Positions 11,163-63,544 of a stretch of DNA of 64,000 nt are shown here, piece after piece. Below the pieces are notes generated by a model that had not been told where the DNA came from, made no database searches, and saw only the letters and a list, made by a program, of their open reading frames with translations. Numbering within the stretch: position 1 is the stretch's first letter; each line of letters begins with the position of its first letter. This DNA comes from Dehalococcoidia bacterium (GTDB lineage: Bacteria > Chloroflexota > Dehalococcoidia > Lucifugimonadales > UBA3495): NCBI GenBank assembly GCA_965201145.1, contig CBDAVT010000002.1, positions 841,084 through 905,083 of the forward strand, read 5' to 3'. The translations under genes and the position numbers were made by a program.

Positions 11163-11225
11163 ACGTGGCCTCTATTGCCGGTACAACAGCCCCCACCCGT
11201 GCGCCGACCCCGTGATTTTTTCGCC

Positions 11226-12233
11226 ATGCAGCTAAGAGACTTGGGGGAATTTGGCCTTATTGAACGGCTGAATGGCATGGTAACCCGGGAGCGGCGCGGC
11301 CGGGATAACGGGGCGGCCTACGGCTTCACCTTGCTGGTAGATACCGGCGACGATACCGCCGCCTGGACTTCCGGCGCGGCCACTGAACTCTTCACCACCG
11401 ATACCGTAGTCGAAGGGATTCACTTCACCCGGGAGACCACTCCCTGGCTCGACCTGGGCTGGAAGTCCCTGGCTTCCAACATCAGCGACATCGCCGCTAT
11501 GGGCGGGCTGCCCCTCTACGCCCTGGTTACTCTGGGCCTGCCGCCGGAAACCGAGGTGGCCCAGATTGAGGAGCTTTACCGGGGTATGCTGGAGATTGGC
11601 GAAAAGTTCGGCGTAGCCATCATCGGCGGTGATATAGTGCGCTCCCCGGTAGTCTTTATCACGGTGGCTCTCACCGGGGTACGCCGCAGCGTCCCGATGC
11701 GGCGCGCCACTGCCCAACCGGGCGACCAGGTGGGCGTTACCGGCTATCTGGGTTCCTCCGGCGGAGGGCTGAAGCTGCTGCTGGAAAACCGCCCCGCCGC
11801 GGCGTCCGCCGCCCGCTACCTGCAAGAGGCCCACCGGCGCCCCCAACCGGCGGTGGCTGCCGGACAACTCCTCGCCCGGGCCGGCGTCCTGACAGCCATG
11901 GACGTGAGCGACGGGCTGGCGGACGACCTGTCAAAGCTGTGTCTGTCCAGCGAAAGGGCGGCCCGTATTTACTCGGAACACATTCCCGTGCATCCCCACC
12001 TGAAGGAGACCTTCCCCGACGAGTTTCTCGATTTGGCCCTTAACGGCGGCGAGGATTACCTGCTCTTGTTTACGGCGCCCGAATCAATTATGCGGGAAGT
12101 AATTCCGGAACTGCCCGAGGGGGCCGCCGTAGTGGGCGAGATTATTGACGGGCCGGCCGGCCAGGTTTCGCTGGTCGGAGCCGACGGCGATGAGATTGTG
12201 GTGAATCGGGCCGGCTGGGACCATTTCGGGTAA
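11226..12233 (+). CDS. thiL: Thiamine-monophosphate kinase
   Basis: MQLRDLGEFGLIERL N-terminus, DDTAAW, and AIR-synthase-like fold motifs (ALVTLGLP, GGDIV). Confidence 0.85.
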   Translation: MQLRDLGEFGLIERLNGMVTRERRGRDNGAAYGFTLLVDTGDDTAAWTSGAATELFTTDTVVEGIHFTRETTPWLDLGWKSLASNISDIAAMGGLPLYALVTLGLPPETEVAQIEELYRGMLEIGEKFGVAIIGGDIVRSPVVFITVALTGVRRSVPMRRATAQPGDQVGVTGYLGSSGGGLKLLLENRPAAASAARYLQEAHRRPQPAVAAGQLLARAGVLTAMDVSDGLADDLSKLCLSSERAARIYSEHIPVHPHLKETFPDEFLDLALNGGEDYLLLFTAPESIMREVIPELPEGAAVVGEIIDGPAGQVSLVGADGDEIVVNRAGWDHFG

Positions 12234-14735: not shown

Positions 14736-15474
14736 TTACTCCCCTTCGCCGAAATAGGCTTGTAGAAACTGGAATGCTTGACGCTTTTGTTCCTCGGAGG
14801 CTGACTGTAGTATAGCCATTACGTTCAACCAGCCGGATTCGTCATCCCAATAGTTCTTCTTCATAACTTGATGCCGGCCGCAAAGCGGTTGCCATTGTTC
14901 CGGGTCTGTAGCATCGGCATTGGCATATATTGAGTGGGGCACTTTATGGTCAGGGGTCAGGCGAACCGTCCCACCTCCCACTGGGTCAATATCGCCTTGC
15001 TTTAGACCGCAGATAACGCCGCTTTCCTCCCACGCACACGCCGAATCATGAGCGGAAAGGATAACTTCCCAGACAGCGCTGGTCGGCCGCGACCGTTTGG
15101 ATGCGGCACTGCGGCGTTCTGAGTTGGGCATCATATATTCACTGACGCGGAGGTGGCCCCGGTTACGCCAGGAAAGAATTTATCTTTCGGTCATTATCGA
15201 GCCTTGCCTTGTGGTGGCCCCGGTTACGCCAAGAAAGAATGGTGTAACCGTCGTCTGTACGAAGTTCTGACAGTCGCTGATGCCAATTCTCCGGTATGCG
15301 TCCACTCTGAGGATCTGTAGCAACCTCAATAAGTTGTTCCCTTGTAGCTACCTTTCCCAAGTTTTCCAAGAAAAAAGCTTCCATCCTGGCTTTGATCGAA
15401 CGCTGCGGATAAGGACCGCGTACCGTTGCATTCCGGTCTTCTGTTTCTGTTTCAATATGGCGGTCTTCTACCAT
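14736..15474 (-). pseudogene. HNH-type restriction endonuclease candidate, split into two ORFs (15163..15474 and 14736..15134) by a 61-nt repeat-bounded segment
   Basis: The N-terminal fragment has wHTH-like ...NWHQRLSELRTDDGYTILSWRNRGH. The C-terminal fragment has DHKVPHS...LCGRHQVMKKNYW (beta-beta-alpha-Me/HNH-like). Removing one repeat copy plus the spacer fuses the two in frame. The start overlaps the stop of the upstream methyltransferase. Confidence 0.6.
15152..15240. repeat. 28-nt direct repeat pair (27/28 identical) with 33-nt spacer inside the endonuclease gene
   Basis: GGTGGCCCCGGTTACGCCAGGAAAGAAT at 15152..15179 and GGTGGCCCCGGTTACGCCAAGAAAGAAT at 15213..15240. The offset is 61 nt, not a multiple of 3. 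Confidence 0.9.
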
Positions 15475-16192
15475 AAACTACTCCCAGCCTTTCTCTCGTC
15501 ACATCCAGCCACTTGGCTGAATGGTCGCACAACAGGGCGCGTCTCTCTAACATCCGGCATACCTCACCCGTAGTGCCGGCGCCACACATAGGGTCGATTA
15601 CCAAGTCTTCTTTCTTGGTAGTCATCAGAATGAGCGGTTCAATAACTGCTAAAGGCTTTTGGGCAGGATGTCCCGTCTGTTCCTTTTTTCCGACGAAACC
15701 GATGTTAAGGGGCGCTTCTAACACCGATGGCGGTCCCGGTATAAAACGCATCTTCCCAGAATTGAGACGCTCTAACTGTCCGTCGGACAGGAAGTGTTCA
15801 GGATACATGGTGGCATTGATTGCTGATATATGCAGGCAGGTGTATTGCGCGGAACGCCAGCCTCTAACTACTGAAGGACAGTTCTTGTAATACCAGGTAA
15901 GCCACATGGCCAATTGATGAGTCTGTGGGAGAAGGGGAATTTGACGAGACACAATCTCGGGGAATCCCCACACAAATACATGCTCCGCAAGATTGCAAGC
16001 GGCCGACACAACTTCCGATAGCCAATCATCATAGTCAGCTCGCTCACCACCGATGCCCCGGTTGTACCAAGGGTCAAGGACCACAGTTTGTGCAGATGGA
16101 GCAGTTCTCAAAGTGTCAAGGACATCTGCAGGAGGTAGAACTTCAACATTTTGCATTTCTGGCGGTATATCAAATAGTCTGGCGTTTACCAT
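15452..16192 (-). CDS. Beta-class N6-adenine/N4-cytosine DNA methyltransferase
   Basis: Motif IV-like DPWY (VVLDPWYN) precedes HPAQKPLAVIEPLI and motif I DPMCGAGTTG, the beta-class order. G+C is lower than the flanks by eye. Confidence 0.85.
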   Translation of the reverse strand: MVNARLFDIPPEMQNVEVLPPADVLDTLRTAPSAQTVVLDPWYNRGIGGERADYDDWLSEVVSAACNLAEHVFVWGFPEIVSRQIPLLPQTHQLAMWLTWYYKNCPSVVRGWRSAQYTCLHISAINATMYPEHFLSDGQLERLNSGKMRFIPGPPSVLEAPLNIGFVGKKEQTGHPAQKPLAVIEPLILMTTKKEDLVIDPMCGAGTTGEVCRMLERRALLCDHSAKWLDVTRERLGVVYGRRPPY

Positions 16193-60212: not shown

Positions 60213-61394
60213 ATGACTATGGAATCGGCCAGTTACGACCTGCTGCTGAAGGGGGGCACTCTGCTGGACCCGGGCCAGGGAATCCACGACCGCCGGGATA
60301 TTGCTTTCCGGGATGGCGCGGTAGCCGCCGTCGCCGAGAACATCCCTCCGGAGCCGGCGGCCCAGGTAGTAGATATAGCCGGCAAGTTGGCCACACCGGG
60401 CCTGATTGACCTGCACGGCCACTTTTATCACGGCGGTACGGGCAGCGCCGTCCACGCCGACCAGAATTGTCTATCCGCCGGAGTGACTACCGGCATTGAC
60501 GCCGGCAGCTCCGGCTTCCTGAACCTGGGAGCGATGCGAGACTACGTTTTCCCGGCCCACCGCACCCGGCTGCTCGCCTTTCTCCACATCGGCAGTGTAG
60601 GTCTGGCCGCCAACCGGGTACTGGGCGGCGGCTTGCAGGACCTGCGCATCATCGACGTGGACCGCACCGCCGCTGCCGTTAAAGACAATCCCGGCTTTCT
60701 CTTTGGAATCAAGGTGCGGATGGAGCTTAATGCCGTGGCCTACTGGAATGCCGCCGAAGCTATGCGCCTGGCCCGGGCCGCCGCCGACCAGTCGGGCAGT
60801 CGGCTGATGGTGCACGTTAGCGGTACGCCGATACCCCTGCCCCAGGTTCTGGACTTTATGGGCCCCGGGGACATTTGCACCCACGCCTTCAACGGCAACC
60901 ATGAAGGCATCCTCGACCGGCAAGACCGAATCCGACCGGAGGTGCAGGCCGCCGCGGAACGGGGCGTCATAATGGACCTGGGCCACGCCGGGGTCCACTG
61001 TGATGTGGAAGTAGCCCGGGCCGCCATCGCCCAGGGTATGCCGCCGGACACCATCAGCACCGATATTCACCTGCCCCCGCCCGGGCGTCGGGTCTATTTG
61101 ATGAACGACCTGGTCAGCAAGTTCCACGCCCTGGGAATGCCTTTGGCCGATGCCGTGGCCGCCAGCACCTGCCGACCAGCCCAGGTTCTGGGCCTGCAAG
61201 ACAATTTGGGTTCCCTGGCGCCGGGGATGTGCGGCGATGCGGCGGTCTATGACCTGCGTGAAGGCCGGTTTGTGTGGCACGATATGGCGCGCAACAAGGT
61301 GGAGGGCAAAGTTCGGCTGGATACTTTCCTGACGGTGCGAAATGGCGGCATTGTCTGGCGGGAGGGCAAGCTGACCGAGATGGGGCCGTGCTGA
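60213..61394 (+). CDS. Amidohydrolase-family metallohydrolase (dihydroorotase/deacetylase-like)
   Basis: PGLIDLHGHFYHGG metal-binding motif, MVHVSG, DLGHAG, STDIH. Confidence 0.75.
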   Translation: MTMESASYDLLLKGGTLLDPGQGIHDRRDIAFRDGAVAAVAENIPPEPAAQVVDIAGKLATPGLIDLHGHFYHGGTGSAVHADQNCLSAGVTTGIDAGSSGFLNLGAMRDYVFPAHRTRLLAFLHIGSVGLAANRVLGGGLQDLRIIDVDRTAAAVKDNPGFLFGIKVRMELNAVAYWNAAEAMRLARAAADQSGSRLMVHVSGTPIPLPQVLDFMGPGDICTHAFNGNHEGILDRQDRIRPEVQAAAERGVIMDLGHAGVHCDVEVARAAIAQGMPPDTISTDIHLPPPGRRVYLMNDLVSKFHALGMPLADAVAASTCRPAQVLGLQDNLGSLAPGMCGDAAVYDLREGRFVWHDMARNKVEGKVRLDTFLTVRNGGIVWREGKLTEMGPC

Positions 61395-63544
61395 ACTTCC
61401 GAACCTGGGCAATCACACTTGTCGTTGCCCTTCTGCTGACTGCGTTGGCAGCGTGCCGCCAGGCCGATGCGCCGGAGCCAGCAGCGCCGACGAACGCTGC
61501 GACCGGCTCCGGCTCAACCGCAGCTGCCGCTGACCCAATGGTCGCGCCGGAAACGGAAGCCCTGTCCCCGGTCTCTTCCGGCGTGGCGGCCATCGCTATT
61601 GCCGAGGCGACTGCCGCCGCGCCCCGGTCTGCCCCCGACCCGTCGGTTTCTGCGCCATCAACCACCTCCGCGGCGCCGGGCACGACAAATACGCCAGCTG
61701 CCCCGGAATTTCCGACCGCCGGCGCCGTATCCGGGGATACCCTGATTCAGCTAATCGACCCTCTGGATGAGCCTGAATTTTACTGCGTGGATATTCGCGG
61801 CTTCGGCAGCAGCTTGGAAACCGGGAGTTCTCTTCAGGCGCATACTTGCAAACCGGGAGCGGCCGACAAGTTGTTCCGGTTCAACTATCCCGGCCCCGGT
61901 CAGTTTCAAATGCCGGCCTATGAACTTTGTCTGGAAGCCGAAGCCGGATTGGCCTATACCCGGGACTGCACCGGCGAATTAGTCCAGCAGTTTAAGCATG
62001 GCGCTGACGGAACGATTCGTACCGCCGCCGGTAATAGCTGCCTGTCGGTGGATCCGAGCGAAGGCGAACCGACCGGGGGACGGTCGCACCTGCGCCGGGA
62101 CTTGCAGTTCCTACCCTGCGCCGCGGCGGAACGCCAACTGTCTCGTTGGTCGCTGCCGGGGGAAAATCCCGATTCCGCCCCGGGGCCGGCAACCCGGCTG
62201 ATGCACGAGGCCCTGGATTCGGCGCTGACCGGCAACCCCTGGAAAATAGAAAGTATGGGAGCCAACGGCGACCCGGCCTATATCCCCGTGCTGGTTGAGA
62301 TGATGCGCTTCCCCTGGGCGCGAATTAACCGGGGAGTAGAGGAAGCGATTTTTGAGGCCCTGGACCGGATTGTCGAACAAAACCCGGGCCTCGCCAAAGC
62401 CGATTTCGGGACTTTGCATGATGAATGGTTCCAGTGGGTTATCTGGATAAACCGGAATCCGGAAGTTTGGCCGCCCCCCGGATTTGCCGCCTGGAAGGGG
62501 CGGCTGTATGCCGAGCTGGTGGACCCGGAAATGGGGTCCTTCCTATATGACGGAATCAGGAGCGCCATCCGCATTGAAGAGATAGTCTGGGGCGGAGTCA
62601 GGAAGGACGGTATCCCGGACTTGACCGATGCCCCGGTAATCGCTGCTGCCGAGGCCGACTACCTGGAGCCGGGGGGCCGGGTATTTGGCGTCTCTTTCAA
62701 CGGCGAACACCGCGCTTACCCCCACCGTATCGTCAATGCCCACGAAATGGCTAATGACGTAGTGGGTGGGGTGCCTTTTGCTTTGGCCTATTGAACTCTC
62801 TGCGGCGCGGGAATCGTGTATTCCACCGACATTGACGGGGAACGGGTCGAGTTCGGCACTTCGGGAATGCTGTACCGCAGCAACAAGCTGATGTACGACC
62901 GAAAGACCAATACCCTCTGGAATCAGTTTACCGGCGTGCCGGCGGCGGGGCCTTTGGCGGGAACTGACTTCCGGCTGGAATTGCTGCCGGTAGTTACCAC
63001 AACCTGGGGCCAATGGGTCAAGGCCCACCCGGATACCACGGTGTTGGCCCGGGAGACAGGTATTTATCCGGGCCGCTTCTATAGTTCCGAGTGGGACTCC
63101 CGCTCGATATACTTCCACTACCGGGAGAGCGCGGCCACTATGTTTCCAGTGGGGGAAACCAGCGATGTCCTGTCCCTCAAAGGGCAGGTAATCGGCCTGC
63201 GCATTAACGGCGAGGCGAAGGCTTACCCGCTGGAAGAGTTAAGCGGGCAGCCGGTGGTCAATGATGAGCTGGGCGGCCAGCCGCTGGTAGTGGTTACCGC
63301 CGGGCCGCTGGGCAGCCGCGCCTATGAACGGGGTGAAGAAACGTTCCTTTTGGAGGAAGGCGGCGCATCCGACACTACCCTCCTTACCGACAGCGCGGGC
63401 AAGCTGTGGCGAGTGGAAGAAGCCGCCCTGGTTCAGGAAGACGACCCGGCGCTGCGCTTTCCCCGCATACCCAGCCACAACGCCTACTGGTTCGGCTGGC
63501 ACTCCTTCTACCCGGAAACCGGGGTTTACCGGGCTGGGGAATGA
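61388..63544 (+). CDS. Lipoprotein with beta-trefoil-like region and DUF3179 domain; candidate selenoprotein (in-frame UGA at 62792..62794)
   Basis: ORFs 61274..62794 and 62816..63544 share one frame, separated by TGA. The read-through gives VPFALAY-U-TLCGAGIVY...FGTSGMLYRSNKLMYDRKTNTLWNQ, matching the DUF3179 YCPLC...FG.SG.L...NL.MYDR.T.S.W motif with Sec at the first Cys. N-terminal lipobox LLLTALAAC. Start GTG 61388 overlaps the upstream stop. Confidence 0.65.
62810..62824 (+). promoter_or_regulatory. Weak candidate SECIS-like hairpin
   Basis: 5-bp stem GGAAT/ATTCC with loop CGUGU, located 23-27 nt from the U of UGA. Much weaker than the hairpin at 1356..1372. Confidence 0.25.

Follow-up and report, generated by a model that had tools for sequence, protein, structure and literature searches.

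A predicted selenocysteine codon and its candidate SECIS hairpin in a DUF3179 lipoprotein gene of the Dehalococcoidia

Two reviews (PMC9312934, 2022; PMC13188914, 2026) already count the DUF3179 domain (PF11376) among the prokaryotic selenoprotein families, with the motif UxxC/T, and both cite the work of Zhang and Gladyshev (2007) on the Olavius symbionts (PMC1976440). The DUF3179 selenoproteins were first described from deltaproteobacterial worm symbionts, whereas the member described here belongs to a Dehalococcoidia lineage of the SAR202 or sponge type. It is encoded in a 64-kb stretch of contig CBDAVT010000002.1 (GCA_965201145.1), called the window below and from whose start all positions are counted, and it carries an in-frame TGA codon, predicted to encode selenocysteine (Sec), where the family has the first Cys of its CxxC motif. 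The window gene shares with the catalogued selenoproteins the Pfam domain, the predicted Sec at the first CxxC position, the existence of Cys homologs and a stem-loop downstream of the UGA, and it adds to DUF3179 a set of N-terminal modules comprising a lipobox, a linker, a ricin-like module and helical repeats. The comparison with the catalogued examples MBW1804167.1 and MDJ0986319.1 is one of family listing. Since DUF3179 was already catalogued as a selenoprotein family, the central idea of an earlier reading of this DNA, made from the letters and their open reading frames (ORFs) and referred to here as the sequence-only reading, was right but not new. What is new is this particular member, its mis-annotation as two ORFs, the picture across the Dehalococcoidia, the extra N-terminal modules and a near-invariant miniature hairpin.

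In the published bacterial model of the selenocysteine insertion sequence (SECIS) element, the loop has 3-9 nt with a G at one of its first two positions, the stem has 4-16 bp and the spacing is 16-37 nt (PMC13188914). As in the archetypal E. coli fdhF element and the bSECISearch consensus, the hairpin of the window gene is located inside the coding sequence, close behind the UGA on its 3' side, and has a small loop. The Dehalococcoidia are known for their many selenoproteins: the top ten of BSepDB include two metagenome-assembled genomes (MAGs) of this class, with 46 and 49 selenoprotein genes (PMC13326102). An enrichment of SelA and SelB is reported for the bins of sponge symbionts (PMC5649159).

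An in-frame TGA at the first CxxC cysteine of DUF3179

Translation of the window showed that the TGA at 62792..62794 is the sole stop between two ORFs of the same frame (61274..62794 and 62816..63544). The sequence-only reading had described the same pair of ORFs split by one TGA and had given the junction, correctly, as ...VPFALAY-TGA-TLCGAGIVYSTD...FGTSGMLYRSNKLMYDRKTNTLWNQ; written with Sec, the junction peptide is ...FALAY-U-TLCGAGIVYSTDIDGER. The GTG at 61388 is the likely start, as the database gene call (P0009) begins at the same codon, and the resulting gene measures 2157 nt, TGA included. When Cys was substituted for the stop, the PF11376 profile matched straight across the TGA, from residue 406 to residue 711 and over its full length (profile 1-292 of 292), with an E value of 2.5e-75 and 254.1 bits for a cutoff of 27. 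The TGA occupies the first position of the CxxC motif, here U-T-L-C, which is the Sec position of the DUF3179 selenoprotein subfamily. We consider it very probable, judging from frame and homology, that 61388..63544 is a single gene, for a predicted exported lipoprotein of 718 residues.

The TGA was verified in independent material. An identical 2157-nt gene with the TGA was recovered with zero mismatches from two independent Logan assemblies, one of its contigs being found in 6 samples, which refutes the read error that the sequence-only reading had kept as an alternative. For the relatives, one genome per GTDB species was scanned and 80 loci, the most similar of 497 relatives, were compared, so that the proportion of TGA given here is valid for this clade and not for the whole DUF3179 family. 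These loci come nearly all from Dehalococcoidia, SAR202 or sponge-associated Chloroflexota MAGs and have 45-77% protein identity. TGA stands at the Sec codon in 79 of these 80 species-representative genomes, L048 being the only one with TGC, and also in contigs L001 and L002, which are syntenic with the window. Two of the loci, L063 and L076, contain a second paralog that likewise carries the TGA. Altogether, the TGA is present in 83 distinct sequences, orthologs or paralogs, of about 80 species of Dehalococcoidia, each time at the same codon, and a six-frame screen counted 82 U, 9 C and 1 W in this column.

At the Sec position, L048 and L086-L089 have Cys, as do the full-length database homologs in which the motif is seen. 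These database homologs, retrieved by protein search at about 50% identity, read Y-C-(T/S)-L-C-G at the position of the TGA, with one Trp exception, followed by FGTSG.LY.SNKLMYDR.T.TLW; the DUF3179 motif that the sequence-only reading had given holds in them, and the Cys-form alignment at the codon, together with the 83 TGA sequences, provides both the homologs and the further UGA-containing members that it had proposed to look for. In the database, the nearest three relatives (68-77% identity) are fragments of 247-252 amino acids that begin at the GTG just past the TGA; contigs L001 and L002 belong to this group. A common start at this one GTG is typical of a selenoprotein gene that gene callers have cut in two.

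Both halves of the gene are under purifying selection. Compared with the closest relatives (66-77% identity), dN/dS, the ratio of nonsynonymous to synonymous substitution rates, was 0.07-0.15 upstream of the TGA (200 codons) and 0.09-0.14 downstream (249 codons), with dS above 1, and in more distant pairs it rose to about 0.2-0.3, still similar on both sides. The peptide T-L-C-G-x-G-I, which spans the gap from the TGA to the GTG at 62816, is invariant across the 83 TGA sequences, yet each residue is written with 2-4 codons. A stretch that is invariant as protein and synonymously variable is translated, which indicates that the ribosome reads through the TGA.

Three observations on individual loci touch on copy number and taxonomy. 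The paralogous DUF3179 pairs of L063 (10505 and 16862) and L076 (10520 and 16736) lie about 6.3 kb apart, and every copy shares the hairpin along with the TGA. On CBDEFY010000001.1, the ranges L036 (587936-609204) and L037 (599455-620723) hold identical DUF3179 Sec genes in opposite orientation about 11-12 kb apart, the result of an inverted duplication or else an artefact of assembly. Finally, L068 (JAPOVR010000002.1) is labelled 'Actinomycetes bacterium' and contains a DUF3179 Sec gene whose SECIS region is almost identical to those of the Dehalococcoidia; the label is probably a binning or classification error.

The hairpin downstream of the TGA and the decoding of UGA

The DNA of the hairpin, GGAATCGTGTATTCC (GGAAT CGTGT ATTCC), begins 15 nt past the TGA and encodes G-I-V-Y-S. 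With a 5-nt loop that has a G at its second position, a stem of 5-6 bp and a UGA-to-loop distance of 20 nt, it falls within the published model on these points. Counted from the U of the UGA, the G-U at loop positions 2-3 is G25-U26, comparable to G23/U24 in the E. coli SECIS loop. The exact 15 nt recur in 72 of the 83 TGA sequences, the others having a G.U wobble (6), a C-to-A change in the loop (4) or one mismatch (1). This constancy shows in the codons: among distinct TGA forms, GGA is used in 77/83, ATC in 79/83, GTG in 83/83, TAT in 83/83 and TCC in 82/82. Neighbouring invariant residues are synonymously free, as the Tyr at -1 is TAT in 65 sequences and TAC in 18, the Gly codons are used in all four forms, and the Ser at +23 is TCG in 36, TCC in 35, TCA in 7 and TCT in 2.

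RNAalifold, applied to the TGA forms, returned the hairpin helix at 62810..62824 and no other. A sixth closing pair covaries across them, with C-G in 35 sequences, U-A in 27, G-C in 1 and no pair in 20. These 63 paired cases of 83 compare with 43.7 expected under independence, none of 500 shuffles reached the covariation score, and the pairing collapsed when the partner was slid. The Cys forms behave differently. L086-L089 have the same I-V-Y residues and write them with TAC and other stem-breaking codons, and L048 has different residues at the hairpin positions. Since Cys forms with the same residues break the stem, the constraint is one on the RNA and goes with the TGA. On this comparative evidence, the hairpin is the predicted core of a SECIS element. 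The sequence-only reading had seen only a weak hairpin here; that a hairpin exists at this place was correct, and 'weak' does not suit what appears to be a conserved SECIS core. Two loci, L049 and L051, carry a 9-nt insertion just past the hairpin, and L040 departs from all others straight after codon +13 (10553 onward); the hairpin is unaffected in all of these.

Accordance with known elements is incomplete, and several results weigh against a Sec codon with a SECIS element. In its stability the element is borderline. For a minimum free energy criterion of -7.5 kcal/mol or lower, the hairpin alone reaches -2.0 to -4.4 kcal/mol. With the hairpin enforced in a 55-nt context, the window sequence attains -12.8 kcal/mol and 81 of the 83 sequences pass -7.5. 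In contrast to other bacterial SECIS elements, whose likeness was described above, the conserved core here is thus just 5-6 bp at -2 to -4.4 kcal/mol and reaches the criterion only with a lower stem that is 72% paired across species and shows no covariation; no bulged U is evident either. In the window itself the sixth position is an unpaired G.A, the 91-nt region 62780..62870 folds no better than shuffled sequences (z +1.16), and an Rfam search of the window gave no match, to a SECIS family or to any other. As this folding result indicates, thermodynamics alone would miss the element, and it is the comparative data that are decisive. Also on this side of the account are a TGG (Trp) at the Sec codon of L003 (10571-10573; ena:ERZ25766727 ctg350188), where the hairpin is intact, and the search for the Sec machinery. 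The window is 64 kb of a contig of about 2.4 Mb. In it and in all the relatives' loci, about 1.7 Mb of flanks, tblastn queries with the E. coli proteins SelA, SelB and SelD, along with tRNA searches, found no selA, selB, selD or tRNA-Sec; ARAGORN reported no tRNA in the window and no tRNA-Sec in the loci of 60 relatives.

Candidates from the machinery search were rejected. A weak SelD match at 11340..12008 (26% identity to E. coli SelD, E 4e-9) is part of the ThiL-like gene listed in Table 1 and not selD. Weak SelA matches at L061:6012-7148 and L058:3520-4284 belong to a 378-amino-acid, SelA-like pyridoxal-phosphate-dependent protein, which is not a canonical selenocysteine synthase: it is 26% identical to the E. 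coli SelA core, lacks the N-terminal domain and is followed by a gene for an integral membrane protein. Nor did the window yield a second selenoprotein gene in a six-frame screen for Sec/Cys pairs against the fetched loci, which covers the regions that have homologs there. Long ORFs interrupted by TGA in the window were, besides the target, just adjacent genes and off-frame ORFs, and a generic scan for a TGA with a downstream GU-loop hairpin and a redox-like context was too noisy to discriminate at 60% G+C. The study of Mukai et al. (2017; PMC5424206), consulted for a Cys-recoding route in Dehalococcoidia, offered nothing that bears on the DUF3179 gene.

These points have to be set against the other explanations of the TGA. 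Automatic gene callers, in the window genome and in the relatives, annotate a 468-residue lipoprotein ending at the TGA (P0009) and a separate protein of 242 residues from the GTG at 62816, 24 nt past the TGA, and database proteins P0017, P0019 and P0112 all begin MYS... accordingly. Two products of a split gene, whether or not they assemble, are nevertheless very improbable: the seven codons from TGA to GTG, with their protein invariance and synonymous variation, are translated, the GTG is a part of the fixed hairpin and codes for a Val conserved in the family, the second piece would have no signal peptide though part of an exported domain, the break falls exactly at a Cys conserved in full-length homologs, and the Cys forms are single proteins. 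The TGG of L003 and the machinery searches would also suit a UGA read through with a standard amino acid, near-cognate Trp or Cys, with the hairpin as a stimulating element. We regard such read-through as very improbable too, as all non-TGA homologs other than L003 carry Cys, hairpin size, loop G-U and spacing are those of SelB-type elements, and the class is documented as selenoprotein-rich; coverage of the L003 contig is 2x, and TGA stands at this codon in L030, the nearest relative of L003, so that the TGG of L003 probably reflects a sequencing error or a mutation of very recent date.

A nonsense mutation in a pseudogene, or a sequencing or assembly error turning TGC or TGT into TGA, would need a single base change, and it can practically be dismissed: identical sequence is present in independent assemblies, the TGA is kept in 83 distinct sequences at 45-77% protein identity, and the downstream half has the same purifying selection and neither further stops nor frameshifts. 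The mutation of a TGY codon to TGA, which the sequence-only reading had treated as a real alternative, is refuted by this conservation and by the selection on both sides. Equally negligible is the possibility that UGA has been reassigned throughout the genome, as in genetic codes 4 and 25, and that the TGA is an ordinary sense codon; the in-frame TGA itself speaks for this and nothing further. TGA is the most frequent stop in the window and terminates 17 of its 41 long ORFs, including the neighbouring amidohydrolase gene upstream and the DUF3179 gene itself, the genome has about 60% G+C, and the six-frame screen, over the regions with homologs in the fetched loci, met no further conserved TGA within a frame that could plausibly be coding.

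We therefore estimate at about 90% the probability that the TGA at 62792..62794 is a genuine Sec codon with a SECIS element. The Sec assignment to U-x-x-C made in the sequence-only reading has gained from the Cys alignment, the TGA shared by about 80 species, the selection on both sides, the translated gap and the SECIS-type hairpin that has decayed in Cys forms. In the proposed mechanism, the UGA of codon 469 would be decoded as Sec, the mRNA hairpin GGAAU-CGUGU-AUUCC would act as a bacterial SECIS element, SelB would bring Sec to the ribosome once the UGA occupies the A site, and translation would then go on through the last 249 residues. A rough neighbour-joining tree was built from 83 Sec forms, 55 Cys forms and one TGG form; in it, several Cys lineages are nested among the Sec forms, parsimony gives about 7 state changes, and the same hairpin is common to all Sec forms. 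The simplest reading of this tree would be a single origin of Sec with later reversions to Cys accompanied by hairpin decay.

Domain layout and chemistry of the motif

From the N- to the C-terminus, the protein is predicted to consist of a lipobox signal peptide, a linker, a lectin-like module, helical repeats and the DUF3179 domain (Table 1).

Table 1. Features of the DUF3179 gene and its surroundings in the window
Feature	Position	Strand	Basis or remark
ThiL-like gene (thiamine-monophosphate kinase type, AIR-synthase family)	11175..12233	+	mistakable for selD
Conserved hypothetical gene, 146 amino acids	59641..60081	+	first of the syntenic trio; without family match
Amidohydrolase/deacetylase-family metallohydrolase gene	60213..61394	+	NCBIfam NF006689, E 3.4e-107
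Predicted complete selenoprotein coding sequence	61388..63544	+	718 codons and TGA stop; GTG start; one internal putative Sec-UGA
Putative lipoprotein-type signal peptide MLNFRTWAITLVVALLLTALAA/C	61388..61456	+	lipobox L-A-A-C, residues 20-23
Low-complexity linker, Ala/Pro/Thr/Ser-rich	61457..61762	+	translation
Cys-containing ricin-B (beta-trefoil) lectin-like module	61784..62065	+	sub-threshold Pfam PF00652
Alpha-helical repeats, HEAT-like (GDP..IP.L.E.LRF)	62195..62590	+	aligns with helices 60-172 of the P0001 AlphaFold model
DUF3179 domain (PF11376), mostly beta	62603..63520	+	full-length Pfam profile; AlphaFold model of homolog
Putative Sec-encoding UGA, residue 469	62792..62794	+	first position of U-T-L-C
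U-x-x-C motif TGA ACT CTC TGC	62792..62803	+	residues 469-472
Predicted SECIS apical hairpin GGAAU / CGUGU / AUUCC	62810..62824	+	5-bp stem, 5-nt loop
Possible lower stem around the hairpin	62797..62841	+	62797..62807 pairs with 62827..62841

The N-terminus reads MLNFRTWAITLVVALLLTALAAC, and its residues 15-23 (...LLLTALAAC) fit the lipobox pattern [LVI][ASTVI][GAS]C, with Cys23 at codon 61454..61456; an ..AAC.. lipobox is also present in the consensus of the homolog alignment. The label of lipoprotein in the sequence-only reading agrees with this pattern match, and the product would be exported and lipidated. For the lectin-like module, the Ricin_B_lectin profile matched residues 133-226 with an E value of 5.3e-5 and 23.8 bits, below the gathering cutoff of 29. 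The orthologs in L001 and L002 have stronger, precomputed matches to this family; the beta-trefoil or lectin-like character proposed earlier for the N-terminal half may hold, the window protein itself remaining below threshold. The module is confined to the 20 or so closest species. The helical repeat region had no match to a Pfam family, and the region equivalent to the linker in the modelled Cys homolog described below had a low predicted local distance difference test score (pLDDT).

As a stand-in for the window protein, an AlphaFold model of the Cys homolog P0001 was used (pLDDT 89.4; predicted template modelling score, pTM, 0.85). In this model, the CxxC lies on a turn between two beta strands. 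The U-T-L-C centre of the window protein, replacing the C-x-x-C of the family, would thus sit on a beta-hairpin turn of DUF3179 outside the cytoplasmic membrane, and Sec may be the attacking residue of a selenol/thiol redox centre that acts on an extracellular substrate. Such an extracytoplasmic redox centre is the somewhat favoured chemistry, because Sec replaces the first Cys, UxxT variants are listed, and a structural metal site would have little reason to keep Sec. The idea of the sequence-only reading that Sec decoding would support a redox role of DUF3179 is a reasonable inference. Comparison with known structures did not add to it: Foldseek of the P0001 model against the PDB gave no significant match (best E 0.12), a PDB sequence search found no relative, and there is no NCBIfam model for the protein. 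These results give the redox role no structural support and, as no significant PDB relative is available, no function is transferable. The thioredoxin-fold CxxC/CxxU/UxxC selenoproteins (DsbA-like, thiol:disulfide interchange, Prx-like) resemble the window protein in the exchange of Sec and Cys within a dithiol motif of two-residue spacing; some of them are extracytoplasmic, and their redox role is presumed, as here. Unlike these families, DUF3179 is mostly beta around the motif in the P0001 model and has no thioredoxin-fold match by Foldseek, and it is not a member of them.

A site for a metal or metalloid (e.g. Cu, Hg, Zn or Fe), on a beta-hairpin of the knuckle or Rieske type, is the main rival to a catalytic redox pair and a possible though less likely role for the U-x-x-C. 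The placing of a C-x-x-C-G on a beta-turn is reminiscent of metal knuckles, at least 90% of homologs keep a His-Glu pair 17 residues upstream, and several catalogued UxxC selenoproteins handle metals. The domain also has a faint Foldseek likeness over about 100 residues to NirD, PetC3 and Rieske oxygenases (probability 0.4-0.66), which carry a Cys motif at the tip of a beta-hairpin. However, the structural matches are not significant (E at least 0.5; 0.5-1.7 for the Rieske-type and NirD-like domains), the CxH...CxxH ligand pattern is absent, the domain has just two conserved Cys, and the UxxT variants of the reviews are more in keeping with one catalytic Sec, as in the favoured selenol/thiol redox centre, than with two chelating residues.

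Gene neighbourhood and significance

The upstream amidohydrolase gene ends within the start of the selenoprotein gene, where the GTG overlaps its TGA stop (GTGCTGA, window 61388-61394). The two genes are probably co-transcribed, given this overlap, which also suggests translational coupling. The order 146-amino-acid hypothetical gene, amidohydrolase/deacetylase gene and DUF3179 gene is kept in the 21 closest loci, across which the amidohydrolase is better conserved (74-89% identity) than the selenoprotein (57-77%). In L001, L002, L086 and L089, Sec-form and Cys-form loci alike, an Amidohydro_2 (PF04909) gene adjoins the DUF3179 gene; the window ends short of the matching position. A scan of promoters and terminators gave no signal above background. 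Elsewhere in the window, the segment 24001-28000 has a G+C content of 0.53 as compared with about 0.60 in the remainder and may be a foreign island, and a restriction-modification-like methyltransferase ORF lies at 15452-16192 on the minus strand.

None of these results overturns current knowledge. The gene has been split in two by automatic callers, here and in dozens of related genomes, and viewing it as one predicted selenoprotein gene corrects the annotation. With its near-invariant 15 nt and its broken stem in Cys forms, the hairpin is a clean natural case of an RNA element within a coding sequence. Bacterial SECIS models miss about 13% of catalogued selenoprotein genes (PMC13326102), and this hairpin, with its Cys-form decay, could help refine them.

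A wider proposal, which we put forward tentatively and consider doubtful, is that DUF3179 selenoproteins are a near-universal cell-surface selenoenzyme of marine and sponge Dehalococcoidia, served by an unusually small SECIS element and fused to a lectin in the window lineage. If this were true, the invariant core of 15-17 nt, below the canonical stability, would imply that a minimal hairpin is enough for recognition by SelB in this class, and the fusion to a lectin-like module would suggest that selenol chemistry is aimed at extracellular glycans or particles. For the family, a Sec at the motif would mark the first Cys of DUF3179, a widespread domain, as functionally critical, pointing toward redox or metal chemistry, and for the organisms, the gene adds to the evidence of a heavy investment in selenium by marine Dehalococcoidia.

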